A DNA stretch of 64,000 nt from NCBI RefSeq assembly GCF_030684315.1, contig NC_081366.1, positions 6,510,001 to 6,574,000 of the forward strand, given 5' to 3'. The notes under the pieces are model-generated. The model saw nothing but the letters and a program-made list of their open reading frames with translations, was not told where the DNA came from and did no database searches. The translations under genes and the position numbers were made by a program. Below are positions 5,933 to 57,227 of this stretch, piece after piece. The stretch's first letter is position 1. Every line of letters starts with the position of its first letter. This stretch comes from Stegostoma tigrinum (taxonomy: Eukaryota).

Positions 5933-8394
5933 CTCACTGAAGAAACTGATCCCATCATTTTACAACATTTGAAGCCTGACCATGTCTTGAGGTCACAATA
6001 AGGCGGTAGCCTATATCGATTAAGAATTTGAATTTTGGGAAATACGTTGCCACTTGTCTCTTTATCCGATGTAGAACATACCTCGTAACAAAAGTTTTGA
6101 GACAGTGCGTCACGGCCAAACACTTCAACATAGTTCGGGGGAATCTGAAGGTTCACGCTGGCTTTTTGTATTCCATTGAGAGAATGCGTTGACCCGAAGC
6201 AGCAGCCCGTATCAAGGGAGCAGCTGTGATGGTGAAAAACGTTCCTACTTTGGTGGACTTTGATAGCCAAGATAACCAAAATCATTAGAAAAATGGATGA
6301 GGTCGTCCCTAAAGCTATGACTAAGTATAGGCTTAGGTCCGAAGGCAGTCTGTCATCCTCAGTTAAGCTATTGACTTCAGAAAGGATTTCACTCTCACTG
6401 TCCGTCAATGATAAGATGATATTTATGGTGGCAGTCAATGGGGGAAGCCCATCGTCTTTTACTAGGACAACCAAGCGCTGTTTGGTTGCATCTTGACCCG
6501 TAATGCGGCGTACTGTCCAGATCTCTCCCGTGTCCGGAGCAATGGTAAAAAGACCAGGGTCAGTAGCCTGAGCCAGTTGATAAGAGAGCCTTGCATTGGG
6601 ACCAGAATCCGCATCAGTGGCTGACACCTTGGTCACCAGGTAACCCGGCTCTGCTGATCGAGATACTGTCTCCACTGCTGTCGACCCATACTCCGGTATT
6701 GGGGATATAATGACTGGGGCATTATCATTTTGGTCTAGAATGACCACGAACACATCCACATTACTGCTCAGTGGAGGGATTCCAGCGTCGAGAGCTTGGA
6801 CCCGGATCTGAAACTTCTTCAATTCTTCGTAGTCAAAAGAGCGCTCGGCAGATATTACACCGCTGTCTGAATTAATGGAGACATAATTAGAAACGGGGTC
6901 GTGGCCGACTTGTGTCTGTAAAATAGAATAGGACAGTCTGGAGTTCTGATTTAGATCCGAATCAAAAGCTGGCGCTGAGTAGATTGAACTGCCAATGACG
7001 TTGTTCTCAGTGATATAGGTAGTGTATGAACTCTGCGAGAAACGTGGCGGGCTGTCGTTTATATCAGAGATCTTTAGCTGAATGGTTTTGTTGGAGGTGA
7101 GTACGGGCGAACCTTCATCCCAGCAGGTAACGGTGATATCATATTGAGAAACCATTTCTCGATCTAGTAAATCTTTGGTGACCAGTCGGTAATAGTTCTT
7201 AAATGTTGAATCCAATTCGAAAGGAAGGTTCTTTGGGATCTGGCAGTGTGTGTTTCCATTCTCCCCCACATCCGAATCAGTCACACTGATTAAAGCTAGC
7301 ACAGTCCCCAGTAGGGCATCTTCAGGCACTGAACTGGACAAAGAAGTCACCGTTACTTCAGGCGCATTATCATTCACATCATCCACGTCCACTATCACAT
7401 CGCAATGCACGGGTACGGATCCTGAGCCTTTATCCACAGCTTGCACACTAATCTCCAATTGCTTTGCTGATTCAAAATCGAGATGTCCTTTCACACGAAT
7501 CTCTCCAGTTGTGGGATCCACACTGAACAGCTCCCGCACTGTAACAGAAATGTGGCTACTAAAGGAATAGACAATTTCTCCATTGGAACCTTCATCTGGG
7601 TCAGTGGCGTTCACTTTGACCACCAACGTTCCTACGGGCACATTTTCCATCAAACTGACACGATAAAGGGACTGGCTAAAGGTAGGTACATTGTCGTTGA
7701 CATCCAGAGTTTGTATGAGAATCTGTGCAGTGCCAGATCTCTGCGGAATGCCCCCATCTGTGGCCGTCAACACTAGCTGCAGTGTGGGCTGCTGTTCTCT
7801 ATCAAGAGGTCGCTCCATCACCAGAACCGGGAGTTTAACGTCCTCACTGCGAGATTGTACATCCAACTTAAAATACTGATTAGGAGCCAACTGATAGCTT
7901 TGCAAGGAGTTGGTGCCTACATCGGGATCGTACGCAGGCTCCAATGGGAAGCGAATTCCAGGCACCGCTAACTCGGATATTTCCAAACGGAGCAGTTCCT
8001 TCGGGAAATGGGGACCGTTGTCGTTTATATCCAAAATCTCCACCTCGACGTGATACACATTCAGTGGCTCGTCGATCACAGCCTCCAGCGTCAAAGTACA
8101 ACCGAGGCTCGAGCCACAGAGTTGCTCTCGGTCAATATTCTCCTGCACCACTAAAATCCCATTGTCTACATTCAAACCGAAGTACTCTATCCTGGGACCG
8201 GATACGATCCGAAGATTCCTAGTCGATAACTGCTTTACATTTAAACCCAAATCAGCCGCGATGTCCCCAACAAACGCGCCCAGCTGTAATTCCTCAGGAA
8301 TGGAATACCGAATCTGTCCAGAAACCAGGTTCCAGCGGAACAATAAACACAATAGTTGCCATCTTAACAACCAATATATTTTATAAAATCCCAT
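5933..8394 (-). CDS. Clustered protocadherin variable exon V1 (3'-most in window)
   Basis: ATG at 8394 (MGFYKIYW...), QIRYSIPEE, six cadherin repeats (DxNDN, DRE/DYE, AxDxG), TM LYLVIALG..., QIPPNYVEVFG motif. The donor AGTGAG|GTAAGG at 5933/5932 is in phase 2, unlike the other exons. An in-phase alternative donor GAG|GTATGT is at 6082/6081. Confidence 0.92.
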
Positions 8395-8620
8395 TTCTAG
8401 CACAAAGCATTTCAATCCTTTCAGCACGTCACAGCGCTGTCCACTTTACTCCTTGGAATAAAATGATTACGTATAATTTTTCAAAATCCAAAATAAAGAG
8501 ACATAATACCTGCAATTGAGATACATTCTCAGAAGCAATTTCTGATACATCTTATCAATTCTTCTAAAATCACTATAGATTGGGAATATAAAATATCCCG
8601 CTACTCGCTACCCAATATCA

Positions 8621-8795
8621 CACTGTATCAGATCCTATGTGATGGCGGATGGGACGAGAAGGGGGTAGTCTGGATCTCCAGTCACCATTCAGTCACTGAT
8701 TGGTGGATGGAGACCCATTTGTCCTCAACCAATCACAACTCGCAGCATTTCTTAAAGCTATCAGGTCAGCAAGTTTAACATTTATTGTTGTACAA
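8621..8795 (-). promoter_or_regulatory. Pcdh V1 promoter
   Basis: Plus-strand motif order shared by all paralogs: GATGGCGG/G-rich tract, GGATCTCC, ATTGG 8699, CCAAT 8729, TTCTTAAAGCT 8749, TTTATTGTTGTACAA 8781. Confidence 0.8.
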
Positions 8796-9649: not shown

Positions 9650-10025
9650 CTGGCTTCAGTTGGGGGAGGCAATATCTTCGTGTGGCCATCAACCCAGAGA
9701 GTTAAATGATGTTCTGAGGACCTATGCTCGAATCATGCTACGGCAGATGGTAAAATTTCAATTCAATAAAATTCTGGAATTAAGGCACTAACGTTGACCA
9801 CAAGTCCATTGGATTGTTGGAAAAATCCATCAGATTCACTAATATCTTTTAGGGAAGGGAACTAACATCCTTACCAACAACAAGAACACCACCATCGTTA
9901 CCTAGTCTGAACTGCATATGACTTCAGACCCACAGCATTGTGGTTGACCCTTAACTGCCCTACGTACAATTAGGTATGGACACTAAATGGTGGTCCAGCC
10001 AGCAAAACCGACATGCTGTGCATGA
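9650..10025 (-). mobile_element. Degenerate LINE-derived interspersed repeat
   Basis: Resembles by eye a common shark repeat (AAAAATCCATCAGATTCACTAATATCTTTAGGGAAGG...GACTTCAGACCCACAGCA). Family and strand are uncertain. Confidence 0.35.
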
Positions 10026-11075: not shown

Positions 11076-13550
11076 CTCACTATTTACAATGTTTGTACAT
11101 TTTTCTGGAGGTGAGATGTGTGGGTTTTTTCCCTTCTCAATGTATTCACTCCTGACGTTACATTTCAAATGAGATGAAGTGCACACCTTTGAAAAGGCAG
11201 AGTCATGCTTAGTTGAACCTAAGGTTGAACATGTCTCGTAGCGGAAACTCTGAGACAGAGGGTCACCACCAAATACTTCCACATAATTTGGAGGTATCTG
11301 AATGTTTCTGCTGGCCCTTTGAATGCCATTCAATGAATGTCTTGATTCACAACAGCAGCAGGTGTCCAGGGCACAGCTGTAAACTCCGAGCCGAGTTCTG
11401 TTCCTGTGCACTTTCACAGCAAGGACGATTAAAATTATCAGAAAAGTGGACGAAATTAATGCTAAGGATATCACCAAGTAAAAACTCAAATCAGAAGGGA
11501 ACCCGGGATCTTCATTTAAACTTCCAGCATCAGAAAGCAGCTCTGATTCCTCATCGACCACCGATATACTGATCGTCATAGACGCTGAAAGTGGTGGAGT
11601 TCCGTTGTCTTTTACAATAATTGTTAAACTCTGCTTTATTGAATCTCTGCCCTCAATTCTACGGACTGTCCAGATTTCGCCAGTATCTGGTGAAATCGTG
11701 AAAAGTCCTGGGTCAGTAGCCTGAATAATCTGATAAGATAGGCGAGAGTTCTGACCAGAGTCTGCATCAGTGGCAGATACCTTGGTAACCAGGTATCCTG
11801 GTTCCGCCCAACGGGACATTGCCTCTGTTGCTGTTGGCCCATACTCAGGTAGTGGGTGCAGAATCACTGGAGCATTGTCGTTCTGGTCAAGGATAACAAC
11901 ATCTACTGACACATTGCTGCTGAGTGCTGGAACTCCAGAATCCTGTGCCTGAACATGGAACTGAAAGTTTTTAAGTTTCTCATAATCAAATGTTAACTGA
12001 GAAAGGATGACTCCATTATTTGAATCAATACGCACGTAGTTGGTCACTGGTTCGTCCTGAATCTGTTTTCTCGGAATAGAGTAAGATATCTGACCGTTCG
12101 CATTGACGTCCGGGTCGGACGCTTCCACAGAGAGGATTGACCCTCCGATAACATTGTTCTCCATCACATAGGCTGTGTACACGGGCTGTTTAAAACGTGG
12201 AGCATTGTCATTTACGTCAGTGACCTCCACCCGCAAAGTTTTCTTGGAAGACAGTGGGGTCGAGCTTGCATCACTACAGAGGACAGTGATGTCGTACTTG
12301 GAGGCGGTTTCCCTGTCCAGTTCCTCCCGCGTTAACAATTTGTAATAGTTCTTTAAAGGAGAATTCAATTTAAACGGAATGTTATCTGGGATTTGACAGC
12401 GGACATGTCCATTTTCTCCTGAGTCTTTGTCGGTGGTGCTGATCAGAGCCACCACAGTCCCGGGCACATCGCCTTCACTAACTGGACTGAACAAAGAAGT
12501 TACTAATACCTCTGGTGAGTTATCATTCACATCGGTAACATCGACATGTATGTGACAGTACACTGGAACCGCATAAGGACCCTTATCCATTGCCTGAACA
12601 TTGATCTCAAAAGCATTATTTTCTTCATAGTCCAAATTGCCTTTCACTTTGATCTCCCCTGTTTTGGAGTCCAGATCAAACAGCTCACGCACTGTCCCTG
12701 AGGTATGACTGGTAAAAGAATATTCTATATCGCTATTAGAACCATCATCCAAATCAGTTGCTTTCAGTATGATCACCATTGTTCCTTTGGGCACATTTTC
12801 ATTCAGGCTGACCCTGTAAACCGACTGGGAGAACACGGGAGAATTATCATTGGCGTCCAGCACCGTGATTATTATTTGAGCAGTGCTGGACCGCGGAGGG
12901 ATCCCTCCATCCTTGGCAATAAGCTCTAACCTGTGGGTTGATTCTTTCTCTCGATCCAGTGCCTTTTCAAGCACCAGCACCGGCAGCTTCTCGTCCCCAC
13001 TGCGGGTTTCAACGTCCAGACCGAAGTACTGACTCCCAAGCAATCGGTAGCTTTGTAGGGAATTGGTTCCAACGTCAGGGTCGTGCGCGCACTCAAGAGG
13101 GAAGCGCGCTCCCGGTACAGCCAGTTCAGACATTTCAAGGCGGATTTCGTTTTTTGGAAAATGGGGAACGTTATCGTTAATATCCAAAATCTCCACCTCA
13201 ATTCGATAGACATTCAGAGGATTTTCGATCACAGCCTCTATAGACAATACACATATGAGACTCGACCCACAGAGTTGCTCTCTGTCAACTGTCTCCTTCA
13301 CAAGTAAAATCCCATTGTCTAAATTTACGTCGAAAAACCTTTTGTTGGGGCCGGGCACAATTCGAAAATTTCGAGGCGACAGCTCTTTCACGTGTAAACC
13401 CAAATCCTCGGCAATGTTTCCAACAAAGGCACCCAGCTGTAACTCTTCAGGAATCGAGTAACGAATTTGCCCCGAAACCAGAATCCAAGAGGGGAATACA
13501 CAGTACAACAGTTGCAGTTTTACTAACCAGTGTATTCTATAATATCCCAT
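11076..13550 (-). CDS. Clustered protocadherin variable exon V2
   Basis: ATG at 13550 (MGYYRIHW...), six EC repeats, TM, CCCC, GIQRASRNIQIPPNYVEVFGGDPLSQSFRYETC. Phase-0 donor AGTGAG|GTGAGA at 11076. Confidence 0.95.
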
Positions 13551-13780
13551 TTCCAGCGACAAAACATTTCAGATGCTTCAGTGCAGCGCAGCTCCGTTCG
13601 CCAACTGGTCTCAATAAACTTCCCTATATATAATTTTGCGAGAGCTGTAATTTGCAAAGTACCAGTATTACTTATAGATCCTAGTCTCATTTGTGACGGC
13701 CGTTCCTATTCATTCGAAAATCATCCGTAGGTATACGTGCAAATCGCAAGACAGAAACCGACAGCTTGCTGTCCATTTTA

Positions 13781-15378: not shown

Positions 15379-17823
15379 CTCACAATTAACAGTATTTCTA
15401 GAATTTGCAGAGTTCAACATTGGTGGGGGATCTTTGCCAGCAGGGCCGGTCTTTCCAGCATGTGAACTCCGCATACTGCGAAACATGAAGTCTCTCTTCA
15501 GCGTATCTGAAGACGAGCACGTCTCGTAGCGGAAGCTCTGAGAAAGTGGGTCGCCCCCAAACACTTCCACGTAGTTCGGAGGAATCTGAAGGCTCCGACT
15601 GGCTTTGTGAGTTCTTGTCTCAAAGCAACAACAGGTGCCCCGAGAAGAGCTTCGGTGGTCAACACCAGGTCTGTTTTTATAAACCATAACGGCGAGGATA
15701 ATTAAAATCACTAGAAAAATGACCGAAAGTAACCCCAAACCTATGACCAAGTAAAAGTTTGCATCCGAAGCAAAAACAGCTCCTTCTGGTAAAGTGTCCA
15801 TCTCGGATAAGATTCCTGTTCTACTTTGTTCCACAGATACAATGATGGTCATGGTCGCTGTAAGTGGCGGGACTCCACTGTCTTTTGCAACAATGACCAA
15901 CTTTTGCTTCCTGAGATCCTTGTCCAGGATGCTACGAACTGTCCATATTTCCCCCGAGTCCGCTGATATAGTAAAAAGTCCCGGGTCAGTAGACTGAAAA
16001 ATCTGGTAGTCAAGGCGAGCATTCTGGCCAGAGTCCGCATCGGTTGCGGCCACTTTTGCAACCAGGTATCCTGGTTCGGTCGATCTCGAAACTGTCTCTA
16101 TCGCCGTAGAGTCATACTCTGGTGATGGCTGTGTGAACACTGGCGCATTGTCATTTTGATCAAGGATAATAAATTGAACTGAGGCATTGCTGGCCAGTGG
16201 CGTAGCTCCAGAGTCCTGTGCCCGCACGTGAATCTGAAAGTTTTTAAGTTGTTCGTAGTCAAATGTTGTGTGAGAATATAACACACCAGTTTCTGAATGA
16301 ATCTGAACATAGTCGGATATTGGTAAATCCTGATCCTCAGTTTCCAGGATGGAGTAGGAGAGTCGAGAATTCTGGTTTAAGTCTGCATCGAAGGCTGTCA
16401 CAGTGAAAACAGAGGAGCCGACAACGTTGTTCTCCATCACATAGGCAGTGTATAAAGGTTGTGTAAAACGTGGAACGTTATCATTAACATCGGAAACTTC
16501 CACGCGGATAGATTTCTTGGCTGCGAGAGGAGGGAATCCTCTGTCGCTACACAAGATTGTAAGGTCATACTCTGACGTTTTTTCGCGATCGAGTGGCTTC
16601 TGAGTGACCAAGCTGTAGTAATTCTTCACAGACGAATCCAGTCTGAAAGGAGAGTCATTTGCAATTTGGCATTGAACCTGTCCATTATCTCCCGAGTCTT
16701 TGTCCTCCACACTAAACAAGGCTACCACCGTTCGAGGCAGGGAGTTCTCAATAACAGGACTGAACATAGAGGTCAAAGTTATCTCAGGTGAGTTATCATT
16801 GACATCAATAATGTTAACCAGGACATCACAGTACACAGGCGTCGCATAAGGCCCCTTGTCCATTGCTTGTACATTAATCTCAAAAACACGATTTTCCTCA
16901 TAGTTCAAGTTGCCTTTGACTCTAATCTCCCCACTTCTGGAATCCACGGTGAACAGTTCGCCAACTTTGGAAGAGGCGTGACTACTGAACGAGTATACAA
17001 TTTCTCCGTTAGGGCCATCGTCCAAGTCAGTTGCGTTTAGTTTGATGACGAGTGTGCCTTTAGATGCATTTTCCAGCATTCTCACCCTCTGTACTGATCG
17101 CGAAAACACAGGCGCGTTGTCGTTCGCATCTTGTACGATAATAATTACCTGGGCAGTTCCAGATTTTTCAGGGATTCCCCCGTCCTTGGCAATTAGTACG
17201 AGTTTGTGTGTCTTTTGTTTTTCCCTGTCCAGCGGCTTTTGCAATACTAACACTGGCAATTTGCCATCTCCACTGCGCGACTGGATGTCTATTGTGAAAT
17301 ACTCGTTACTGACTAACAAGTAGGTCTGTAAAGCGTTAGTTCCAACATCTGGGTCCTGCGCCGATTCTAGGACAAAACGCGCTCCTTCTACGGCCACCTC
17401 TGAGATTTCCAATCGGAATTGACTTTTTGGGAAACTGGGAGCGTTGTCATTTACATCCAGAATATCCACTTGGAAATGATACACGTTTAAAGGATTTTCA
17501 ATCACGGCTTCTAAGGACAAGGTGCATATCAGATTCGGTCCACAGAGCTGTTCTCTGTCAATTTTTTCTTTCACAAGTAATATCCCATTGTCCACATTTA
17601 CGTCCAGATACTGCTTCCTGGGCCCAGACACGGTCCGAAAATTGCGAGCTCTGAGCTCGTTCACATCCAAACCCAAATCATCTGCGATATTCCCAACAAA
17701 GGCGCCCAGTTGCAGCTCTTCGGGAATTGAATAGCGAATCTGTCCCGAAACAAGCACCCAGTAGGGTAAGATAAAGAACAAAAGTGACCATTTCAACAGC
17801 CAGTGTATTTCAGAAAATCCCAT
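15379..17823 (-). CDS. Clustered protocadherin variable exon V3
   Basis: ATG at 17823 (MGFSEIHW...), six EC repeats, TM and the conserved cytoplasmic motif. Phase-0 donor TGTGAG|GTGAGA at 15379. Confidence 0.95.
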
Positions 17824-18060
17824 TTCCTGCACAATGCATTACAAATGCTTCAGCGCGTCTCGCCATTCAGTGAATCCTTGGAATAAGATTCCGTGCAAGC
17901 GATTTTCACCGATAAAGAGGGATAATATTACATTAAAATACCTGTATTTTTCACATATCACTGAAAAGTCGATCTGATCTTCGTATTTCTTTATAAAATT
18001 GCCAACATAAACGAATATTACACCCGGTGTAGCGCTACTCAGCTCTCTATACGGGTTTTA

Positions 18061-19112: not shown

Positions 19113-21557
19113 CTCAGAATTCACAGTGCTTCTGCACTGTGCATGGGTTGGTGTTCTTGGGGTGTCTCCATTTCCCCAATCACCATTCTGGGTGTTGTTC
19201 TTCCTGGCAGACATAGTGCCTCTGTGGGAAGACAAGAAACCTCCCTTTGTGGAATATGAAGATGAGCAAGTATCATAACGGAAACTCTGAGAAAGTGGAT
19301 CACCCCCAAACACTTCAACATAGCTCGCTGGTATCTGGAGACATTTTCTGTCTTTTCGAAGCCCATTTCGGGAGTCCCTTGCAGTCAAACAGCCACAGGT
19401 GTCTACCGAAGAGCTGTTGTACACCTTAATCGCGAGGGTAATCAAAATCACTAGGAAAATGGAGGAGGTGAGGCCGAAAGTTATCACCAGGTAAAAACTC
19501 GAATCGGAAACGAACTCAGCGTTGTCGCTGGTCACATCAGAGAGCATTTGTACATCCGTTCCCGTCACAGACAGCACGAACGTTACTGTAGCTGTCAGCG
19601 GAGGTATTCCGTTGTCGTTAACACCGATTATCAACCTCTGCTTTGAAGCGTCCTTATTCACGATGCTGCGTATTGTCCAGATCTCTCCCGTATCTGGTGA
19701 AATGGTAAAAAGGCTAGCGTCAGAAGAATGGAGAATCTGATAAGTGAGGCGTGCGTTCTGACCGGTGTCAGAGTCTGTAGCAGAAACTTTGACGACCAGG
19801 TAGCCTGGCTCTGCGAACCGGGACACCGTCTCCAACACCGTGGAACCGAACTCGGGCAAGGGATGTACGATAACCGGGGCGTTGTCATTCTGGTCCAGGA
19901 TAATTATGTGGACGGAAGTGTTGCCAGAAAGAGGCAGTTCTCCAGAGTCATGTGCCAGAACCTGGATTTGAAAACTTTTCAGACGCTCGTAGTCAAAAGT
20001 TCGCTGAGCGTATATGACGCCACTGTCCGAGTTAATAGAGACATAAGTAGATGCTGGCATGCTGTGAATTAGTGTTTCCGAGATATGGTAGGTTAGGCGG
20101 GCATTCTGATTTAAATCGGGATCAAAAGCAGTGACCGAGAATATGGACTCACCAATAGCGCTGTTCTCCATCACGTGAGCAGTATATAAAGGCTGCCTGA
20201 ACTGCGGTGGGTTGTCATTTACATCTGAAACCTCCAGCAGGATGGTTTTGTTGACTGTGAGTGGAGGGTTTCCGGCATCACTGCACACAATAGTTACATT
20301 GTATTTCGAGAAATACTCCCGATCCAGTGTCTCTCCAGTAACCAATCTATAATAACCACTCAAGGAGGAGTCAAGCTTAAATGGAAGCTTATTTGAGATT
20401 TGACATTGCACGTGCCCGTTTTCACCCGAGTCTTTGTCTGTTGAACTGATCAGAGCCACCACAGTTCCCGGAAGGGAGTCTTCACTGACAGGACTGAACA
20501 GAGAGGTTAGGGTCACTTCAGGAGCGTTGTCGTTGACATCAACGATGTTAACTACAACGTGACAGTAAACAGGAGTCGCATTAGGTCCTTTGTCCTTTGC
20601 TTGTACATTAATCTCAAAAACGCTGTTGTCTTTGTGGTTCAAACGTTTCTTAATTTTGATTTCACCAGTTTTTGGATCCAAAGCAAAATGCTCCCGAACT
20701 CTATTGGAAGTGTGACTGCTAAATGAATACACGATCTGCCCGTTGAGACCAACATCCAAATCAGAGGCATCTAGTTTGATCACCAAAGTTCCTATAGGCA
20801 CATTCTCCAGCAAACTGACCCTATAAACCGACTGTGAGAAAACAGGTGCATTGTCATTGGCATCTTCCACTGCGATTATTATTTCAGCTGTGCCAGATCT
20901 CTCAGGGATGCCTCCGTCTTTAGCAGTTAACACTAACCTGTGCGTATTCTCCTGTTCTCTGTCCAAGGCTCTTTCCAAGACTAAAACGGGTAGCTTGCCG
21001 TCCCGACCTCGCGTTTCCAGCTCCAGGTTGAAATAGTGGTTGGCTGACAACTGGTAACTTTGTACAGAGTTGGCACCAACGTCCGGGTCCAACGCGCACT
21101 CCAGAGCAAATCGCGTTCCCAGGGCAGCCATCTCTGAGATTTCCAGGCGGAACTGACTCTCTGGGAAACGCGGAGCGTTGTCGTTTGCATCCAGAATTTC
21201 CACTTGAAAGTGATACACGTTCAGGGGCTTTTCAATCACAGCTTCCAAGGACAGCGTGCAAGTGAGGGCTGGTCCACACAGCTGCTCTCTGTCTATTTTT
21301 TCTTTGATAAGCAAATTTCCATTGTCTAAATTCACGTCCAGATACTGCTTACTGGGACTGTCCACAATGTGAAAGCCGCGAGCTGATAACTCATTTTTAT
21401 CCAAAACCAAATCGTCGGCGATATTTCCAACAAAAGCACCCAAATTCTGTTCCTCAGGAATCGAATAACGCATCTGTCCGGAAGCCAGTTCCCAAGAAAA
21501 GACGATACAATATAAAAATAGCCATTTCAATAGCCGATATGTTTTCCAATACTCCAT
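19113..21557 (-). CDS. Clustered protocadherin variable exon V4
   Basis: ATG at 21557 (MEYWKTY...), QMRYSIPEE, six EC repeats, TM, YVEVFGGDPLSQSFRYDTC. Phase-0 donor TCTGAG|GTGAGG at 19113. Confidence 0.95.
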
Positions 21558-21816
21558 TTCCAGCACAAAACATTTCAAGTGATACAAGCGCAGAGTGAAA
21601 ACAAAACAAAAAATAATCCTGGCAAAAGAATCAATTATATTTCCATTCTGGCGAAACAGCTAGCTTGCCTGAATAACACAGTTTTAAAATTAAAAGAAAT
21701 CTATGATATTATTGCGAACAAACCTTCTCATTTTGTCTAAAATCACCAGTGGCTGAAAAGTAGAAGACCTAATGTAACGAGACGCAGCTCGACCCAAGCT
21801 CTATCTGGTTGGACAC

Positions 21817-23269: not shown

Positions 23270-25681
23270 CTCACTAAGTATAGCTTTCTCCCCGTTTACA
23301 ACGATTTCCCTCCAAGCTTTGTTATTTTCTGTGGACGTGCTGGGGAAATGGACGTCCCTCTTTAGCGAACATGTGTCATAACGAAAACTTTGGGAAAGTG
23401 GATCGCCCCCAAATACTTCAACATAGTTGGGGGTAATCTGTAGGTTCCGGCTGGCTTTCTGAATTCCATTTCTCGATTCAAAGCAGCAACATGTGCCCAA
23501 AAAACATATGCGTCCATCAAAAGCAGCTCTGCTTCCATTAAGCTTAATAGCCAGTATGATTAAAACCACCAAAAAAACCGACGAGATAATTCCCAAAGAA
23601 ATAACTAAGTACAGGTTGGTATCAAAAGTGAAGCCAGGGCTTTCAGCTAAACTGCCTGGGTCATTGAGCATTTCCGCACTGCCTTCTACAATTGTCAGGA
23701 TGATAGTAATTGTCGCTGTAAGTGCTGGTACTCCATTGTCATTTACAAGGATATCTAACTTCTGCTTGTTTGCATCTGTCTTTGTAATCCTTCGGGTTGT
23801 CCATATTTCACCCGTTTCCAATGAAATCGTAAAAAGTCCCCAATTGTTATCATGGAAAATCCGATAGGATAGGTGAGCATTTTGCCCTGAGTCTGCATCA
23901 GTGGCCGTTACCTTGGTCACGAGATACCCTGGATCCGCCAATTGGGGTAGGGTCTCTGTCACTGTTGACCCATACTCAGTTATCGGATGCACAATCACTG
24001 GAGCGTTGTCATTCTGATCAAGGATAATGATGTCTATGGAGACGTTGCTAGCGAGTTGTGGGACTCCACGATCACGCGCTTGAACTCGGACCTGCAAGTT
24101 TTTTAATTGCTCGTGGTCAAAAGATCGAAAGGAATATATCACGCCACTCTCTGAATTTATGTGGATGTACCTGCTTACCGATTCGCCCTGAACCTGGCTC
24201 TCCAGGATATAATAGGACAGCTGGCCGTTTTGCCCTAGGTCGGGATCCGAAGCTGACACCGAGAAAATGGACGCATCGATTTCGTTATTCTCCATCACGT
24301 AGGCTGTGAGGGACGGTTGCGCAAACTGTGGCGCGTTGTCATTCCTGTCTGAAACTTCAACCACAATGGTTTTGTTGGTGGAGAGAGGCGGGGTTCCGCC
24401 ATCGTTACAAGTGATAGTCACATCATAGGTAGAGAAGGATTCGCGGTCCAGCCGTTCCTGCGTGATCAACCGTAAATACTTCTTGGAGGACGAATCCAGT
24501 GCGAAGGGAAGATGATTGCCGATTTTACACTGCAGCTGCCCAAATTTTCCGGAATCCCTGTCTGACGCACTGATCAGGGCTACTACAGTTCCAGGCAGAG
24601 AGTCTTCTGGAACAGGGCTGGATAAGGATGTCAGCGTCACTTCAGGGGCATTATCATTGACATCAATAATGTTCAACACAACATGACAGTATGTTGGGTT
24701 GGCATTAAGTCCCTGGTCCTTTGCTTGTACAATAAATTCGAAAACGTTAACATCCTCATAGTCCAAATTCGCTTTGGTTCTGATCTCGCCCGTTTTCGAA
24801 TCCAAACCAAACAGTTCACGGACTTCAGCAGATGCAACACTACTGAAAGAGTACACAATCTCTCCATTAGAACCATCATCTAAATCCGTGGCGTTTACCC
24901 GCAGAGCCAAGGACCCTTTAGTTATATTCTCTGCCAGGCTGACTCTGTAAACCGATTGCAGGAAAAATGGCTCATTGTCGTTGGCATCTTCAACTATGAT
25001 ATTGATCTGGGTAGTACCAGACCTCTCGGGTACCCCGCCGTCTTTGGCCAACAGCAGTAGCCTGTGGATCGATTGCTTCTCTCTGTCCAGGGGCTTTTCT
25101 AGCACTAGTACGGGTAACTTCCCATCTCCAATGCCCGCCTCAACATTTAACAAGAAGTATTCATTTGCAACCAGCTGGTAGGTCTGTACGGAGTTAATTC
25201 CAACATCAGGATCGTGCGCGCACTCGAGGGGAAAACGCTTACCCGGCGCAGCAACTTCGGAGATTTCAAGGCGGACCTGGCCCTTCGGGAAACTGGGAGC
25301 GTTGTCATTTATATCGCGAATCTCCACCTCGATCTGATGCAAATTCAAAGGATTTTCAAGCACAGCTTCCAAAGACAAAACGCAAGTGAGACGAGGGCCG
25401 CAGATTTGTTCCCTGTCAACCTTTTCATTTACGAACAGAATCCCATTGTGTAAATTGACTTCCAAATATCGCTGATTTGGACCCGATACAAGTCGAAAAT
25501 TCCGAGCAGATAGCTGCTGGACATCAAATCCCAAATCGTCAGCAACGTTTCCAACGAATGCACCCAGATGCAATTCTTCAGGAATCGAGTAACGAATTTC
25601 TCCTAAAATTAGATCCCAGGAGATAAACATGCAAAATAGCAGTTTCGATTTTAAAAAGTAAAATATATTGTAACATCTCAT
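23270..25681 (-). CDS. Clustered protocadherin variable exon V5
   Basis: ATG at 25681 (MRCYNIFY...), EIRYSIPEE, six EC repeats, TM and the conserved cytoplasmic motif. Phase-0 donor AGTGAG|GTGAGG at 23270. Confidence 0.95.
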
Positions 25682-25920
25682 TGCCAGTATTAAGCATTCC
25701 AATTGTTTCACCGCAGCTCCGTAGCATTCGGCGTTTCCTTAAGATTAGAATTGTTTGTGCCGAGTTTCATTACTGAAAAGGCTGCAATGCAGGGAAAATG
25801 TCTTCACCTTTTAAGTGATGCTCGAAATAGTTTCAAAAAGGCCTCTATTTTGTGGTTAAAATCCCAATGAATGCATCGGCGAAAACGATCGCAAACCCTC
25901 TATAGCTCGCTGACCAATTT

Positions 25921-29079: not shown

Positions 29080-31545
29080 CTCACTAATGTTCCTACAATT
29101 AGAAATTGATGCTTGTGGTTTTTCTTGATCCCAAATTGTTTCATTGCCGATACTATTCTTGCCGGTGGATGAGCTACACTGGTTGAAGTACAAGAACTTT
29201 CCTTTGGTCAAATCTGAAGTCGTGCATGTTCCATACCGGAAACTCTGAGATAGTGGATCTCCCCCAAACACTTCAATGTAGTTCGGAGGTATTTGAATAT
29301 TTCTGCTGGCTTTTTGAATCCCATTCAACGAGTTCCTTGCTCGGAAGCAGCAACACAAATCCAGGGCACAGTGAGGGCCACCGCGCCCATTTCTGGTTTT
29401 ATGGACTGCAATTGCAAGAGCAATTAAAACAAGTAGGAAAATGGCCGAAATACTCCCTAAAAATATAACTATGTAAAAACTAGTGTGTTTAGACAAACCA
29501 GAATCGGCAGATAAATTACTCATATCAGAGAGCATTTCTGCATCGCCCTCCACCAGTGACAAGATAAGAGTCATTGTGGCAGAGAGCATTGGTGTTCCGT
29601 TGTCGCTGACGGTCACGACTATCGTTTGTTTCTTTGCATCTCTGCCCGTGAAGCCACGGACTACCCAAATTTCTCCTGTATCAGGTGAGATAGTGAAAAG
29701 TCCAGAATCAGTAGACTGAAGAATCTGATAATTCAGTCGAGCATTCTGGCCTGAGTCAGCATCCGTTGCTGTTACCTTAGTGATCAGGTAGCCTGGCTCT
29801 GCGAACTTTGACACTGTCTCCAATGCTGTTGAACCGTACTCCATGGAAGGGTGAATGATCACTGGGGCGTGGTCATTCTGGTCCAGAATAATTATATCCA
29901 CGGAAGTGTTGCTTGTGAGTGGTGGCTCTCCGGAGTCCCGTGCCTGGATTTGGACCTGAAAGTTTCTCAGTTGCTCGTAATCAAAAGTTCTCTGAGAATA
30001 AATCACCCCATTTTTGGAATTGATACTCAAATAAGTGTACACCGGCTCGTTCTGAACCTGGCTGTCGAGGATAGAGTAGATTAATCGGGCATTTTGGTTC
30101 AAATCTGGATCAAGAGCTGTTACTGCGAAGATTGAAGACCCAATAGCGTTGTTCTCCATCACCTGGGCTGTATACAAAGTCTGCGTAAAGCGTGGCGCAT
30201 TGTCGTTTGTATCCGAGATTTCCACGCGAATTGTTTTCCTGGATGTCAGAGGAGGAGATCCTGAATCACTGCAACGAATACTAATGTCATACGTCGAAAC
30301 ATTTTCTCGATCTAGCAGCTGATGACTCAGCAACCTGTAATAGTTGTTTAATGATGAATCTAATCTGAATGAAAGGCTATTTGCTATTTCACAGTTTACC
30401 CGTCCATTCTCTCCTGAATCTTTGTCGGATACACTGATCAGAGCAACCGCAGTCCCGGGTTTGGAGTCTTCCCTAATGGGACTGAACAACGAGGTTAGAG
30501 TCACGTCAGGTGCGTTATCATTCACGTCAATAATGTTAACTAAAATGTGGCAGTACCCGGGATTTGGATTAATTCCCTGGTCCAGCGCTTGCATGTTAAT
30601 CTCAAAGGCGTTGTCTTTTTCATAGTCCAAAGTCCCTTTAACTCTGATTTCCCCAGTTTTAGAATCCACACTGAATAGCTCACGGACTCTGACAGAGGTA
30701 TGACTGCTGAACGAGTACAATATCTCTCCATTGGATCCATCATCTATATCAGTAGCATTCAGTTTAATAACCAACTTTCCTTTGGGTGAGTTTTCTAACA
30801 GACTAACTGTGTAGACTGAGTTTGGGAAGATGGGTGCATTGTCATTCTCATCCTGCACGACAATTATAATTTCAGCAGTACCTGATTTGGGAGGAACCCC
30901 GCCGTCCTTGGCAATTAGTTCTAACCGATGGGTCGATTGTATTTCTCTATCTAAGGCCCGTTCCAGCACTAACACTGGCAACTTTCCGTCCCCGCCTCGC
31001 GAATCAACATGCAGTATGAAATATTCGTTAGGAACCAGTTGGTACGTTTGCAGGGAATTAGTTCCAACGTCCGGATCGCGCGCGTACTCCATGGCAAAGC
31101 GCGCTCCCGGTGCGGTAAGCTCGGAGATTTTAAGGCGAAACTGGCTGTTCGGAAAACTGGGAGCATTGTCGTTTACATCAAGAATCTCCACTTCAAGGTG
31201 ATACACAGTCAAGGGATTCTCGATCACCGCCTCCAAAGACAACGTGCAAGTGAGGCCTGATCCACAGAGCTGTTCCCTGTCAATTTTTTCTTTCACAAAC
31301 AAATTCCCATTGTTTAAGTTTACCTCCAAATACTGCTTCCGGGGACCAGACACAACACGAAAATTGCGAGCCGTGAGCTGCTTTGCACGTATTCCCAGAT
31401 CATCTGCAATATTTCCAACAAAGGCGCCTGGTTGTAGCTCCTCGGGAATCGAATAACGAATTTGTCCAGAAACCACAGACCAGAATAGGGATAGACAATG
31501 CACCAGTTGCCAAGTTAACCACCAATATATTTGATAACATCCCAT
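29080..31545 (-). CDS. Clustered protocadherin variable exon V6
   Basis: ATG at 31545 (MGCYQIYW...), six EC repeats, TM, GIQKASRNIQIPPNYIEVFGGDPLSQSFRY. Phase-0 donor AGTGAG|GTGAGC at 29080. Confidence 0.95.
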
Positions 31546-31777
31546 CGCCAGTACAAAACATTCCAATTGCTTCAGCGTTGTGCGCCGCTGGTAATTCAGT
31601 GTTTAAAATCGAGGTCTTCATGTATCATTTTCTTGGAGAAGTGAAGCTACAGTGCATAACATACGTTCAATTTTTCCAATTCACTGATATTCTTCCAGAC
31701 AAACATTCCCTTTTTTCTGAAAAATCTCAACAACGCACAAACCTCACAAATGCTCCGTAGCTCGCCATTCCATTCTC

Positions 31778-35729: not shown

Positions 35730-35731
<2 letters not shown>

Positions 35732-36007: not shown

Positions 36008-38476
36008 CTCATTGTACAAAGTGTTGCTGAACTTCTCCGTATGCAGCAACTCTGAATCTTGTTTTCCAAAATAATCATTCTGGGCATTCATTTTGTCCGT
36101 GGGTGACTTGCATCTGTTGGGGGTTATGAAGTCTCTCCTTGTTGACTGCAATGTTGAACATGACTCATAACGGAAACTCTGAGAAAGTGGGTCACCACCG
36201 AATACCTCAACGTAATTTGAGGGTATCTGAAGGTTTCTACTGGCTTTTTGAATTCCATTCAAAGAATGCCCAGTTTCAATGCAACAACAAACTCCCAGGG
36301 AACAGTGCTGACCACACTGTGGATTCCTGCTTTTATGAACCTTCACAGCGAGAATAATTAAAATCACGAGAAAAATGGTAGAAATACTTCCTAATGCGAT
36401 GACCAAGGAAAGGCTCAGATCAGGCCGAAACCCGGGGTCTTCAGACGAACCACTGGCTTTGGAAAATTTGTCAGCGTCATCACCAATTACAGTTAAGATA
36501 ATAGTTACTGAGGCAGAAAGAGATGGTGATCCATTATCTTTTACCAGAATCACCAACCTTTGCTTCGAGGCATCTTTGGAAACGACACGACGGATTGTCC
36601 AAATTTCCCCAGTTTCTGGCGAAATGGTGAAAAGGTTATGCTGGGTAGCTTTAAAAATGGAATAAGAAAGACGAGCGTTCTGACCGGCATCAGCGTCAGT
36701 GGCGGATACCTTGGCAACCAAATAGCCTGGTTCCGCAAACCTGGATATTGTATCAACTGCTGTTGTCCCAAATTCGGCCACTGGCTGCACGATGACTGGA
36801 ACGTTGTCATTTTGATCCAGGATAATCACATCCACTGAAACATTACTTGCCAATGATGGCGTCCCAAAGTCCGTCGCCTGAACTTGAATCTGAAAGTTTT
36901 TCAGTTGCTCGTAGTCAAAAGATCTTTGAGCGAATATGACACCGGTGTGCGGGCTAATAGAGACGTAATCGAATACCGAGGCGTTCAGAATTTGAGTCTC
37001 TAGAATAAAGTACTTCAGTTTGGCGTTCAATCCAACATCGGAATCAAAGGCAGTAACAGAAAATATAGAAGCGCCAACGTCGTTATTTTCCATTATGTTT
37101 GCTGTAAATACAGATTGACTGAATTGTGGCGCGTTGTCATTTACATCGGATACCTCAACCCGAATGCTTTTCTCAGACGTAAGTGGAGGATTTCCGGCAT
37201 CCGAACATGTTATTGTAACGTCATACTTGGAGGTATTTTCACGATCCAGTGCACGATGAACAAGTATTCCATAATAATTCTTTAAAGAAGAATCTAGTTT
37301 AAATGGCAATTTATTTGACATATGACATTGTACCTGCCCGTTTGCGCCCGAATCTTTATCTGCCGCAGCGAACAGAGCGACTACAGTCCCAACTGCTACA
37401 TTTTCCGAAATTGTGGTCGATAATGACGTTAATGTCAACTCAGGTGGGTTATCATTCACATCAATAATATTTACTAAAACATCACAGTGCCCCGACATCG
37501 CGTCATAACCTCCGTCTGTAGCCTGAATGTTTAACTCAAAGACACTGTTTTCTTCATAATCTAACTTACGTTTCACTCTGATTTCACCGGTCTTAGAATC
37601 TACGCCAAATAGTTCGCGAACTCTAGCTGAAGTATGGCTACCAAACGAGTAGCTTATATCTCCATTGGGGCCATCGTCCAAGTCCGTGGCATTTAGTCTG
37701 ATTACCTGCGATCCTGTGGCTACATTCTCTAACAGACTGACTCTGTAAACTGACTGGGAGAAGACGGGAGCATTGTCGTTCACATCATTTACAATTATTG
37801 AGATCTGAACCGTGCCCGATCTCCCGGGCACTCCGCCGTCCTTGGCTATCAACGTTAATTTGTGGCTGCTTTCCGCTTCTCTATCCACAGAGCTCTGTAG
37901 CACTAATACCGGGGATTTTACATTACCACTACGCATCTGTACATCGAGAACAAAATAATCGTTCGGAAGGAGCTCGTAGGTTTGTACGGAGTTGGTTCCA
38001 ACGTCCAGATCGTGCGCGGGCTCGAGTGGAAAGCGCGTTCCAGGAACAGAAAGCTCTGACACTTCTAGGCGGAATTGTGTATTTGGGAAACTAGGAGCAT
38101 TGTCATTCACATCGAGAATCTCCACTGCAACCTGGTACAGCTTTAAAGGGTTTTCAAGGAAAACATTGAAGCTCAGCACACAACTGAGGCTCGGTCCGCA
38201 AATCTCTTCTCTGTCAATTATTTTCGACACCAGTAAAATGCCAATGTCCAAATTTATATCCACATATTGTTTGTTCGTCCCGGCTACTATTCGTAAATTG
38301 CGAGCCGAGAGCTGCTTTATATTTAAGCTGAGATCCTCAGCGATATTCCCAACAAAGGCGCCGAGTTGCAGTTCTTCAGGAATTGAGTAACGAATCTGTC
38401 CAAACACTAGGTTCCAAGAAGAGAATATGCAGCACAAGAAATGGCATTTCAGACGCCAAAATATTTTATATCTCAT
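36008..38476 (-). CDS. Clustered protocadherin variable exon V7
   Basis: ATG at 38476 (MRYKIFW...), six EC repeats, TM and the cytoplasmic motif. Phase-0 donor AATGAG|GTGAGA at 36008; 823 codons. Confidence 0.95.
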
Positions 38477-38700
38477 TTCCAGAGTCAAACATTCCCTTTA
38501 TTTCAGCATGTATCCGCAGCATTAATTATTCTCTTTATAGTTATATCAATGCTTTTATTTCGAAAGCAACTGCGACGTAGTAAATACCTGAACATTTCAC
38601 GAATCGCTTGGATTCTACCATTTAAGTTTCCTATTTTTTCTAAATGTCGAATGGATTCGTGAACAATTGCTTACGAGCCGCTGGCAATCCAATTTTATCT

Positions 38701-40665: not shown

Positions 40666-43134
40666 CTCGTTGTACAAAGTGTTGCTGACCTTCTCGGTGG
40701 GCAGCAACTCAGGATCCCGTTTCCCAACATAATCATTCTGGGCATACGTTTTGTCCGTGGGTGACTTGCATCTGTTGGGGGTTATGAAGTCTCGCCTTGT
40801 TGACTGCAATGTTGAACATGACTCATAACGGAAACTCTGAGAAAGTGGGTCACCACCGAATACCTCAACGTAATTTGAGGGTATCTGAAGGTTTCTACTG
40901 GCTTTTTGAATTCCATTCAGAGAATGCCCAGTTTCAATGCAACAACAAACTCCCAGGGAACAGTGCTGACCACTCTGTGGATTCCTGCTTTTATGAACCT
41001 TCACAGCGAGAATAATTAAAATCACGAGAAAAATGGTAGAAATAATTCCTAATACGATGACCAAGGAAAGGCTCAGATCAGGCCGAAACCGGGGGTCTTC
41101 AGACGAACCACTGACTTTGGAAAATATGTCAGCGTCATCACCAATTACAGTTAAGATAATAGTCACTGAGGCAGAAAGAGATGGTGATCCATTATCTTTT
41201 ACCAGAATCACCAACCTTTGCTTCGAGGCATCTTTGGAAACGACACGACGGATTGTCCAAATTTCTCCAGTGTCTGGTGAAATAGTAAAAAGGTTATGCT
41301 GGGTAGCCTGAAAAATGGAATAAGAAAGACGAGCGTTCTGACCGGCATCAGCGTCAGTGGCGGATACCTTGGCAACCAAATAGCCTGGTTCCGCAAACCT
41401 GGATATTGTATCAACTGCTGTTGACCCAAATTCGGCCACTGGCTGCACGATGACTGGAACGTTGTCATTTTGATCCAGGATAATCACATCCACTGAAACA
41501 TTACTTGTCAATGATGGCGTCCCAAAGTCCAATACCTGAGCTTGAATCTGAAAGTTTTTCAGTTGCTCGTAGTCAAAAGATCTTTGAGCGAATATAACAC
41601 CGGTGTGCGGGTTAATAGAGATGTAATCGAATACCGAGGCGTTCAGAATTTGAGTCTCCAGAATGAAGTATTTCAGTTGAGCGTTCACTCCAACATCGCG
41701 ATCAAAGGCTGTAATGGAAAGTATAGAAGCGCCAATATCATTATTCTCCATTATGCTTGCTGTAAATACAGATTGACTGAATTGTGGCGCGTTGTCATTT
41801 ACATCGGTTATCTCGACCCGAATAGTTTTCTTGGATGTTAGTGGAGGATTTCCGGCATCAGAACATGTTATTGTAACGTCATACTTGGAGTTATTTTCAC
41901 GATCCAGTGCACGATGAACAAGTATTCCGTAATAATTCTTTAAAGAAGAATCCAGTTTAAATGGCAATTTATTTGAAATATGACATTGTAACTGTCCGTT
42001 TGCGCCCGAATCTTTATCTGCCGCAGCGAATAGAGCGACTACAGTCCCAACTGCGACATTTTCGGAAATTGTACTCGATAAAGACGTCAAAATCACCTCA
42101 GGTGGGTTATCATTCACATCAATAATATTTACCAAAATATCACAGTGCCCCAACATAGCATCAGAACCTCCGTCTGTAGCCTGAATGTTTAACTCAAAAA
42201 CACTGGTTTGTTCATAGTCCAATGTCCGTTTTACTATAATTTCACCAGTTTTGGAATTCACGCCAAACAGTTCACGAACTTCAGCTGAAGTGTGGCTACC
42301 AAACGAATAGCTTATCTCTCCATTGGACCCTTCGTCCAAGTCAGTGGCATTTAGTTTGATTACCTGCGATCCTGTGGCTACATTCTCTAACAGATTGACT
42401 CTGTAAGTTGACTGGGAGAAGACGGGAGCATTGTCGTTTGCATCATTTACAATTATCATAACCTGACTCGTGCCCGATCTCACAGGTACTCCGCCGTCCT
42501 TGGCTATCAACGTTAATTTGTGGCTGCTTTCCGCTTCTCTGTCCAAGGTACTCTGTAGCACTAATACCGGGGATTTTACATTACCACTACGCATCTGTAC
42601 ATCGAGAACAAAATAATCGTTCGGAAGGAGCTCGTAGTTTTGTACGGAATTGGTTCCAACGTCCAGATCGTGCGCGGGCTCGAGTGGAAAGCGCGTTCCA
42701 GGAATAGAACGCTCTGACACTTCTAGGCGGAATTGTGTATTTGGGAAGCTAGGAGCATTGTCATTCACATCGAGAATCTCCACTGCAACCTGGTACAGCT
42801 TTAAAGGGTTTTCAAGGAAAACGTTGAAGCTTAGCACACAACTGAGGCTCGGTCCGCAGATCGCTTCTCTGTCAATTATTTTCGACACCAATAAAATGCC
42901 AATGTCCAAATTTATATCCACGTATTGTGTGTTGGGTCCGGCTACTATTCGCAAATTGCGAGCCGAGAGCTGCTTTACATCTAAACTGAGATCCTCAGCG
43001 ATATTCCCAACAAAGGCGCCGAGTTGCAGTTCTTCAGGAATTGAGTAACGAATCTGTCCAAACACTAGGTTCCAAGAAGAGAATATGCAGCACAAGAAAT
43101 GGCATTTCAGACGCCAAAATATTTTATATCTCAT
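40666..43134 (-). CDS. Clustered protocadherin variable exon V8 (close paralog of V7/V9)
   Basis: ATG at 43134, six EC repeats, TM. Phase-0 donor AACGAG|GTGAGC at 40666; 823 codons. Confidence 0.95.
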
Positions 43135-43359
43135 TTCCAGAGTCAAACATTCCCTTTATTTCAACATGTATCCGCAGCATTACTTATTCTCCTTTGAGTT
43201 ATACCAATGTTTTTGTTTCGGAAGCAATTGCACCGGAGTAAATACCTGAACATTTCACAAATCGCTCGGATTATACCATTTAAGCCTTGTATTTTCTCGA
43301 AACGTCCAGTCGATTCGTGAACAATTCCTAACGAGCCGCTTGCAGTCCAATTTTACCCT

Positions 43360-54562: not shown

Positions 54563-57007
54563 CTCATTGCGCAAAGTGTTGCTGACCTTCTCTGTGTGCA
54601 ACAACTCAGGGTCCTGTTTCTCCAAATAAACATGTGACTTACATCTGTTGGGGGTTATGAAGTCTCTCCTTGTTGACTGCAATGTTGAACATGACTCATA
54701 ACGGAAACTCTGAGAAAGTGGGTCACCACCGAATACCTCAACGTAACTTGAGGGGATCTGAAGGTTTCTACTGGCTTTTTGAATTCCATTCAGAGAATGC
54801 CCAGTTTCAATGCAACAACAAACTCCCAGGGAACAGTGCTGACCACACTGTGGATTCCTGCTTTTATGAACCTTCACAGCGAGAATAATTAAAATCACGA
54901 GAAAAATGGTAGAAATGCTTCCTAATACGATGACCAAGGAAAGGCTCAGATCAGGCCGAAACCCGGGTACTTCAGATGAACTATTGACTTTGGAAGACGT
55001 TAGAGCGTCATCACCAATTACAGTTAAGATAATAGTCACTGAGGCAGAAAGAGATGGTGATCCATTATCTTTTACCAGAATCACCAACCTTTGCTTCGAG
55101 GCATCTTTAGAAACGACACGACGGATTGTCCAAATTTCCCCAGTGTCTGGTGAAATAGTAAAAAGGTTATGCTGGGTAGCCTGAAAAATGGAATAAGAAA
55201 GACGAGCGTTCTGACCGGCATCAGCGTCAGTGGCGGATACCTTGGCAACCAAATAGCCTGGTTCCGCAAACCTGGATATTGTATCAACTGCTGTTGTCCC
55301 AAATTCGGCTAATGGCTGCACGATGACTGGAACGTTGTCATTTTGATCCAGGATAATCACATCCACTGAAACATTACTTGTCAATGATGGCGTCCCAAAG
55401 TCCAATACCTGAGCGTGAATCTGAAAGTTTTTCAGTTGCTCGTAGTCAAAAGATCTTTGAGCGAATATGACACCAGTGTGCGGGTTAATAGAGATGTAAT
55501 CGAATACCGAGGCGTTCAGAATTTGAGTCTCCAGAATGAAGTATTTCAGCTGAGCGTTCACTCCAACATCGCGATCAAAGGCGGTAATGGAAAGTATAGA
55601 AGCGCCAATATCATTATTTTCCATTATGTTTGCTGTAAATACAGGTTGACTGAATTGTGGCGCGTTGTCATTTACATCGGATACCTCCACCCGAATGCTT
55701 TTCTCAGACATAAGTGGAGGATTTCCGGCATCCGAACATGTTATTATAACGTCATACTTGGAGGTATTTTCACGATCCAGTGCACGATGAACAAGTATTC
55801 CGTAATAATTCTTTAAAGAAGTTTCCAGTTTAAATGGCAATTTATTTGAAATCTGACATTGTACTTGCCCGTTTGCGCCCGAATCTTTATCTGCCGCAGC
55901 GAACAGAGCGACTACAGTCCCAACTGCTACATTTTCCGAAATTGTACTTGATAAGGACGTCAACTTCACTTCTGGTGGGTTATCATTCACATCAATAATA
56001 TTTATCAAAATATCACAGTGCCCCGACATCGCGTCAGAACCCCCGTCTGTAGCCTGAATGTTTAGCTCAAAGACACTGGTTTGCTCATAGTCCAATGTCC
56101 GTTTTACTATAATTTCACCAGTTTTGGAATCCACGCCAAACATTTCCCGAACTCGAGCTGAAGTGTGGCTACCAAATGAGTAGATTATCTCTCCATTGGA
56201 CCCATCGTCCAAGTCAGTGGCATTTAGTCTGATTACCTGCGATCCTGTGGCTACATTCTCTAACAGACTGACTCTGTAAGGTGACTGGGAGAAGACGGGA
56301 GCATTGTCGTTTGCATCGTTTACAATTATTATAACTTGAACCTTGCCCGATCTCACGGGCACTCCGCCGTCCTTGGCTATCAACGTTAATTTGTGGCTGC
56401 TTTCCGCTTCTCTGTCCAAGGTACTCTGTAGCACTAGTACCGGGGATTTTACATTACCACTACGCAACTGTACATCGAGAATAAAATAATCGTTCGGAAG
56501 GAGCTCGTAGTTTTGTACGGAATTGGTTCCAACGTCCAGATCGTGCGCCGGTTCGAGTGGAAAGCGCGTTCCAGGAATAGAACGCTCTGACACTTCTAGG
56601 CGGAATTGTGTATTTGGGAAACTAGGAGCATTGTCATTTACATCGAGAATCTCCACTGCAACCTGGTACAGCTTTAAAGGGTTTTCAAGGAAAACATCGA
56701 AGCTTAGCACACAACTGAGGCTCGGTCCGCAAATCTCTTCTCTGTCAATTATTTTCGACACCAGTAAAATGCCAATGTCCAAATTTATATCCACGTATTG
56801 TGTGTTGGGTCCGGATACTATTCGCAAATTGCGAGCCGAGAGCTGCTTTACATTTAAGCTGAGATCCTCAGCGATATTCCCAACAAAGGCGCCGAGTTGC
56901 AGTTCTTCAGGAATTGAGTAACGAATCTCTCCAAACACTCGGTTCCAAGAAGAGTATATGCAGTACAAGAATTGGAATTTTAAAAACCAAAATATTTTAT
57001 ACCTCAT
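54563..57007 (-). CDS. Clustered protocadherin variable exon V9 (close paralog of V7/V8)
   Basis: ATG at 57007, six EC repeats, TM. Phase-0 donor AATGAG|GTGAGC at 54563; 815 codons, with an 8-aa cytoplasmic deletion relative to V7/V8. Confidence 0.95.
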
Positions 57008-57227
57008 TTCCAGAGTCAAACATTCCCTTTATTTCAGCATGTCCCCGCAGCATTAATTATTCTCTTTATAGTTCTGTCTTTTTTTGTATCGAAAGCAACT
57101 GCGACATAGCAAATACCTTGACGTCTCATGAATCGCTCCGCTTATAACATTTAATTGCTCTATTTTCTCTAAAATGTCCATTCGATTCGTGAACAAATCC
57201 TGCCGAGCTGCTTGCCATCCAATGTAA

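Follow-up and report, generated by a model that had tools for sequence, protein, structure and literature searches.

Overlapping upstream open reading frames (uORFs), together with leaky scanning, form an ordinary, already known class of translational mechanism. In synthetic yeast libraries, out-of-frame upstream ATGs (uATGs) within 30 nt of the main start reduce output, less when closer, and trigger decay, as described in excerpts of PMC9743702. Human overlapping uORFs and their link to decay are listed in a review, an excerpt of which presents the HBB -29, IRF6 -48 and PRKAR1A -97 variants as out-of-frame uATGs whose frames stop inside the main open reading frame (ORF), with lower main-ORF translation expected (PMC3738444). 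For the clustered protocadherins (Pcdh), a family involved in nerve-cell identity, the accessible portions of two further sources describe promoters without the conserved sequence element (CSE), namely those of mammalian alpha-c2, beta1, gamma-c4 and gamma-c5 (PMC7811963) and of Xenopus pcdh-gamma2 15-36, a contiguous distal block (PMC4978886). A literature search judged from listings, with the elephant shark cluster paper outside its scope, found no paper on uORFs in clustered protocadherins. Here we analyzed a 64,000-nt stretch (the window) of Stegostoma tigrinum contig NC_081366.1 (positions 6,510,001 to 6,574,000), in which nine minus-strand ORFs of 821-881 codons, the clustered Pcdh variable exons V1-V9, are each preceded by a near-start uATG opening an overlapping, out-of-frame uORF.

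The identity of the exons was evident from their tandem 2.4-kb arrangement, 3' donors, common downstream constant exon and Pcdh-nu homologs, the named ones including elephant shark Pcdh nu8, nu9, nu13, nu15 and nu17 and the closest homologs coming from carpet sharks. Nu homologs and an adjacent gamma-like constant exon are also the points of likeness to the elephant shark Pcdh-nu subcluster. V1 is the last variable exon, since the gamma-like constant exon 1 follows about 1.75 kb below the window. All nine uATG/main-ATG pairs of the preliminary description were recovered on the minus strand, along with its G at -3 of every uATG (9/9) and its uORF stops past the main ATG (9/9, lying 11-146 nt beyond the A of that ATG). 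The uATG-to-main-ATG spacing was 16 nt in eight exons and 17 nt in V2, every pair was out of frame, and the uORFs ran for 8-53 codons. As a separate feature of these exons, 12 of the 15 members of the clade defined below carry an extra out-of-frame ATG that shares the frame of the uATG, lies at main-ORF positions +29 to +32 and is built mostly from Lys/Arg-Trp or Lys-Cys codons of the signal peptide.

A search with the EC1 domain returned 43 matches across 1.46 Mb of the window's contig (C15) and one on contig C1, a lower bound. Thirty-five further matches were retrieved, of which 33 on C15 had an assignable start, giving 42 scorable exons together with V1-V9; a pseudo-exon with no start (L035) and an exon on the other contig (L025) were set aside. 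In a quick protein tree, V1-V9 and six neighbors (L001-L005 and L008) formed one 15-exon clade (SH-aLRT, a likelihood-based branch support, 100) at the 3' end of the cluster. The uATG was retained in 14 of these exons, always with G at -3 and with T, C or A at +4: at -16 or -17 and overlapping in 13, and at -15 in L002, where it is in frame with the main ORF and meets a stop two codons on. L003 has lost the ATG, but an overlapping uORF starting at -46 is present. The spacing claimed to be fixed at 16 nt is thus typical of the window, whereas spacings of 15, 16 and 17 occur in the clade; the start is unproductive at both shifted spacings (15 in L002 and 17 in V2). Likewise, the attribution of a uATG to every variable exon held for the window but not cluster-wide, with an ATG at -15 to -17 in 15 of the 42 scorable exons and in only 1 of the 27 outside the clade (L012, a sister-clade exon whose ATG is in frame and followed by a stop). 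Because the nine exons are paralogs of one clade, the near-start uATG represents a single evolutionary origin, neither nine independent ones nor a cluster-wide feature. An in-frame TGA at -9 is found in L002, L012, L009 and L006, and the two-codon uORF of L002 and L012 possibly represents the ancestral state, before a 1-nt insertion made the uORF overlap. Three other exons (L013, L014 and L018) carry an overlapping out-of-frame ATG at -25, which may be a former start codon shifted out of frame, as their signal peptides are about 8 residues shorter.

The leader immediately upstream of the main ATG was markedly constrained. On the coding-sequence tree, the -30..-1 block had a length of 2.4 substitutions per site, against 6.7 both at 54 four-fold sites and at leader positions -107..-31, and 16 of its 30 positions changed at most once. 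The uATG triplet took two steps, both on the L003 branch. In neutral simulations, an ancestral ATG was kept in at least 14 of 15 tips with a probability of 0.023 at a tree length of 2 and 2e-5 at 5, and in 0 of 200,000 runs at 7.5, the measured neutral length being about 6.7. The uATG is under purifying selection and conserved above the neutral rate, as the preliminary description had supposed. This genome alone does not separate selection on the ATG from selection on a longer motif. Elsewhere in the leader, the TTT at -168 is invariant and is the best-conserved leader triplet of the clade.

Homologs from other cartilaginous fishes were informative on this point. The site was read from database gene models that run in frame through the block, so that only open frames are visible, and 12 of 204 proteins, from nine other species (chimaera, five shark genera and two rays), were usable. 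The other 192 lacked a clade extension that could be used; examples are P0121 and P0129, whose gene models have a junction at or within the block, and P0003, P0054, P0091 and P0093, with at most three residues. The residue above the uATG site was Cys in 10 and Trp in 2 proteins, and because it is one or the other, TG is forced in 12/12; all 12 were compatible with ATG and with purine-N-N-ATG. Compatibility fell to 10/12 for CTG at -6, 8/12 for TGA at -29, 6/12 for TGAA and 5/12 for GGAATG, with G-18 excluded in four proteins and A-17 in three. The base following the ATG took all four letters across genes, counting the L005 stop. The stable pattern would seem to be purine-N-N-ATG, as expected if a start codon is the selected unit.

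We consider it somewhat more probable than all other explanations together (about 0.55), judging from sequence comparison, that the uATG serves as a leaky-scanning decoy start that lowers Pcdh protein output. Scanning ribosomes, some of them re-starting after short upstream uORFs, would reach an AUG that has G at -3 and, in most cases, a pyrimidine at +4; some would start there, make a throw-away peptide of 8-53 residues and end past the main AUG, while those leaking past would make Pcdh from the main AUG. Two AUGs 16 nt apart would still compete, so that damping would be partial. The early uORF stop could also feed nonsense-mediated decay, because the constant exons are spliced on downstream of it. 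The 16-17 nt found here is at the edge of the range of about 17 nt over which AUG competition is described in the yeast excerpts (PMC9743702), although that figure was measured for downstream ATGs in synthetic libraries and the excerpts do not deal with natural vertebrate gene families. The human variants described in part in PMC3738444 resemble the shark arrangement in frame and stop position, but they are new single-gene disease mutations, whereas the shark uATG is ancient, retained by a family of paralogs and separated from the main ATG by only 16 nt.

Two other familiar types of uORF fit less well. An ATF4-type switch is defined by a short, conserved upstream uORF1 and by enough distance separating its inhibitory uATG from the main ATG; here too most leaders have short uORFs ahead of an overlapping one, but the upstream uORFs differ in every leader and the last uATG lies 16 nt from the main ATG. 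Conserved-peptide uORFs differ in that the shark uORF peptide is not under selection. Re-initiation had been described as precluded, a wording that goes somewhat too far where the stop lies at +11 or +14, as it does in nine cases, since short backward re-starts after a nearby stop are possible. The proposal that the uATG equalizes output among isoforms was not supported, because the leaders are not alike in start context, uORF length or number of uATGs: uORFs span 8-53 codons, leaders hold 2-8 uATGs and the main ATG is followed by G in 5/15 and A in 10/15 clade exons.

Several observations weigh against the decoy-start explanation. Within this genome the ATG is not conserved above several of its neighbors, contrary to one expectation: TGA at -29, G-19, A-17, T-11 and G-3 are kept as well in the clade exons, and the uATG ranks no higher than joint fourth among the 232 leader triplets, after TTT at -168, TGA at -29 and AAT at -17. 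Across species it is better kept than TGA, CTG and GGAATG, but not better than T-11, which is invariant in the clade, forced in 12/12 homologs and without explanation under a decoy start. In the homologs, A-16, the first base of the ATG, and G-19, its -3 purine, occupy third positions and are possible but never forced, and two homologs would carry G at +4, a strong context contrary to a tuned leak. Seven of the 12 proteins came from a query containing the extension, which biases them to Cys; an extension-free query gave seven usable proteins (two shared), five with Cys and two with Trp. L003 retains an intact ORF despite the loss of the ATG. The 2-8 uATGs per clade leader are mostly not conserved, and the RNA support described below comes from one run whose RNA nature is guessed and whose strand is unknown. 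Regarding abundance, with leaders delimited from the X1 contig end described below, clade leaders held 68 uATGs in total against 84 expected from shuffles (54 against 90 in the other exons), and at least one overlapping uATG was present in 14/15 clade leaders against 7.5 expected, although these counts are not independent.

The main competitor, somewhat unlikely in our estimation, is that the -30..-1 block is recognized by a protein that binds DNA or RNA (as a downstream promoter element or a splicing or translation enhancer), with the ATG incidental and its translational effect tolerated rather than selected. The equal conservation of TGAA at -29, T-11 and CTGG at -6 in this genome, the number of near-invariant block positions and the recurrence of TGAAA/GAAATG-like words at -29, -21, -6 and about +27 all suit such a site, but across species the flanks erode as described above while TG stays. 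RNAalifold found no consensus RNA structure around the start in the clade leaders. A TEAD/MCAT site was rejected, its GGAATG core being present in only 9/15 clade exons and compatible with 5/12 homologs. A REST/NRSE half-site (motif from an excerpt of PMC2926608) was likewise rejected, as -30 is C in only 9/15 by eye.

Alternatively, the block could be a present or past in-frame extension of the signal peptide (LKxLECFVLE) beginning at a CTG, GTG or TTG near -30, with the ATG arising incidentally where a codon ending in A precedes a Cys codon; we regard this as improbable. Main-frame second positions change least (1.2 steps vs 2.7 and 2.4), with a P of 0.03, or 0.10 for any position, and in chimaera, sharks and rays a similar peptide can be read. 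Of the clade exons, 7/15 keep this frame open to -30, but it is broken in 8/15, with three stops and three indels. Within the window these breaks are the stops in V3 and V7 and the insertion in V2 already reported, plus stops in V8 and V9. In the 12 clade members without indels (excluding V2, L001 and L002), the ratio of nonsynonymous to synonymous change (pN/pS) was 1.3, 1.7 and 1.2 for the main, uORF and third frames, respectively, against 0.42 in EC1 and 0.69 in the signal peptide, and pS was 0.21-0.25 in the block frames versus 0.46-0.52 in coding sequence. These values do not resemble those of a non-AUG extension. The codons after the uATG gave a pN/pS of 1.15 over uORFs of 8-53 codons, unlike a conserved-peptide uORF. 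The constraint therefore acts on bases and not on any encoded peptide. The three replacements of Cys, two to Trp and one to a stop, all keep TG, and a dead relic would not hold at a third of neutral divergence; as a present function, the in-frame extension is largely refuted.

It is very improbable that the ATG lies outside the mature mRNA, either because transcription starts below it or because a leader intron begins at the donor-like motif near -113. Evidence on the leader came from contigs of a run (X1) guessed to be RNA from a related species with about 95% identity; they fall on exons and repeats, and two intergenic bins were empty. One contig runs from the V1 coding region to position 8633 (-239) without gap or joint and then enters adapter, whereas the DNA runs X2 and X3 continue. 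The proximal CCAAT box, at -309, stands 70 nt above this end, a usual distance from a CCAAT box to a start site. The V3 contig extends to -41, and among the pieces listed the uATG was covered in V1 and V3, two of the five exons compared. The V1 uATG is unchanged in X1, which carries no weight for selection, since 14 changes in 239 nt spare a triplet about 83% of the time. These contigs weakly suggest that the uATG lies in the mRNA leader, as had been presumed. With loose matching (5-7 of 9 letters), a donor-like motif was found at -84 to -126 in 15/15 clade exons. It lies about 125 nt downstream of the likely start site and reads CAG/GTATTT in most, with other donor-like words in V4, V5 and V6. 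It could serve U1 binding, splicing to the constant exon or a DNA-bound factor. A leader mini-intron was rejected: the single X1 contig passes through the V1 motif unspliced, below the uATG no AG acceptor is conserved, the joints of fused gene models are scattered, and introns ending at the AGs near -55 would measure 49-70 nt and leave the uATG in place. Neutral inheritance of a chance ancestral ATG, copied by duplication or gene conversion, is just as improbable: one clade with one origin and 27 overlapping uATGs in one common frame by descent accord with it, but it is refuted for the whole block by the lengths and retention probability above (P at most 2e-5) unless the neutral rate was overestimated about threefold, and gene conversion is disfavored because the adjoining signal-peptide third positions (3.4 steps per site) are not homogenized.

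The clade also differs from the rest of the cluster in its promoters. A CTTTAAG-ATTGG-CCAAT module precedes all 15 clade exons and eight other cluster exons (exact pattern, with 23 of its 72 genome matches in these exons and 35 matches for the reversed control). A CGCT-type (CTCF/CSE) element stands before the CCAAT box in 24 of the 27 non-clade exons, 23 with CGCT and one variant. In the clade it has decayed: the best profile score was at most 9.6 in 15/15, versus 13.7-39.9 in leave-one-out scoring of 22 training exons, and the CGCT-box element sought 200-350 nt upstream of the start codon is missing from all 15 exons. The CSE-less block of the cluster is thus the uATG clade, and the uATG and the loss of the CSE are a single coincidence on one branch; near-start uATGs also occur in four CSE-bearing exons. 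A translational layer on top of promoter choice, as first proposed, is thus doubtful in its second half, since these exons are without the CTCF element that underlies promoter choice in mammals. The CSE-less mammalian and Xenopus promoters, as far as the excerpts describe them (PMC7811963 and PMC4978886), resemble the shark clade as a contiguous block at the far end of a cluster that lacks CGCT/CTCF and keeps its own promoter motif; the excerpts make no mention of a uATG. Matches to sequences of solved structures did not discriminate as to orthology with the mammalian C-type genes (alpha-c2/gamma-c4/c5), giving the same ranking for the clade and for a CSE-bearing control. One quite unlikely scenario is that the 3' Pcdh-nu block of cartilaginous fishes swapped CTCF-driven choice for broadly firing CCAAT-driven promoters, and that, over some 400 million years, a decoy AUG positioned at the margin of the AUG-competition range has kept the protein level of each isoform low so that co-expressed isoforms do not swamp the stochastic identity code. 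Among the exons set aside, L035 (G000:C15:6724800-6728770) has a stop in the signal peptide and a short frame, yet its CGCT promoter module is intact.

Table 1. Coordinates of the features within the window
Feature	Position	Strand	Remark
V1 uORF	8381..8410	-	overlapping, out of frame, 9 codons; uATG 8410, main ATG 8394
V2 uORF	13523..13567	-	overlapping, 14 codons; uATG at -17 (1-nt insertion)
V3 uORF	17810..17839	-	overlapping, 9 codons; another same-frame ATG at -43
V4 uORF	21454..21573	-	overlapping, 39 codons
V5 uORF	25578..25697	-	overlapping, 39 codons; another same-frame ATG at -46
V6 uORF	31400..31561	-	overlapping, 53 codons; another same-frame ATG at -76
V7 uORF	38466..38492	-	overlapping, 8 codons; another same-frame ATG at -46
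V8 uORF	43124..43150	-	overlapping, 8 codons; another same-frame ATG at -46
V9 uORF	56997..57023	-	overlapping, 8 codons; another same-frame ATG at -46
Constrained block -30..-1	8395..8424	-	V1 coordinates, with the block equally placed ahead of each main ATG; TGAA at -29, G-N-N-ATG at -19, T at -11, CTGG at -6
V1 leader	8395..8633	-	about 239 nt, spanned gap-free by one X1 contig
V1 donor-like motif	8504..8512	-	candidate; CAG/GTATT, about -110 to -118, partly conserved in clade
V1 promoter module	8699..8757	-	CTTTAAG and two inverted CCAAT boxes, without CGCT core
V2 promoter module	13852-13909	-	
V3 promoter module	18138-18186	-	
V4 promoter module	21872-21929	-	
V5 promoter module	26000-26048	-	
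V6 promoter module	31846-31903	-	
V7 promoter module	38774-38832	-	
V8 promoter module	43433-43491	-	
V9 promoter module	57305-57363	-	
V1 variable exon ORF	5929..8394	-	Pcdh-nu-like; last before constant exon 1
V2 variable exon ORF	11001-13550	-	Pcdh-nu-like
V3 variable exon ORF	15355-17823	-	Pcdh-nu-like
V4 variable exon ORF	18912-21557	-	Pcdh-nu-like
V5 variable exon ORF	23114-25681	-	Pcdh-nu-like
V6 variable exon ORF	29065-31545	-	Pcdh-nu-like
V7 variable exon ORF	35939-38476	-	Pcdh-nu-like
V8 variable exon ORF	40564-43134	-	Pcdh-nu-like
V9 variable exon ORF	54476-57007	-	Pcdh-nu-like

The window holds some further features. A pseudo-exon at 60205-60987 on the minus strand is a frameshifted fragment of a variable exon (EC2-EC5 region), and three ORFs of 171-272 codons lie on both strands at 49337-50794, between V8 and V9. 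Intergenic pieces of high-copy repeats, judged from very high contig depth, were located at about 9900-10780, 14790, 18500 and 22230.

The natural variants of this clade (spacings of 15, 16 and 17, the loss in L003 and four different +4 bases) suit the study of competition between close AUGs in vertebrates. In the literature consulted, control of clustered protocadherins is placed in promoter choice and splicing; a decoy start kept across chimaera, sharks and rays would, if true, add translational control of dose.

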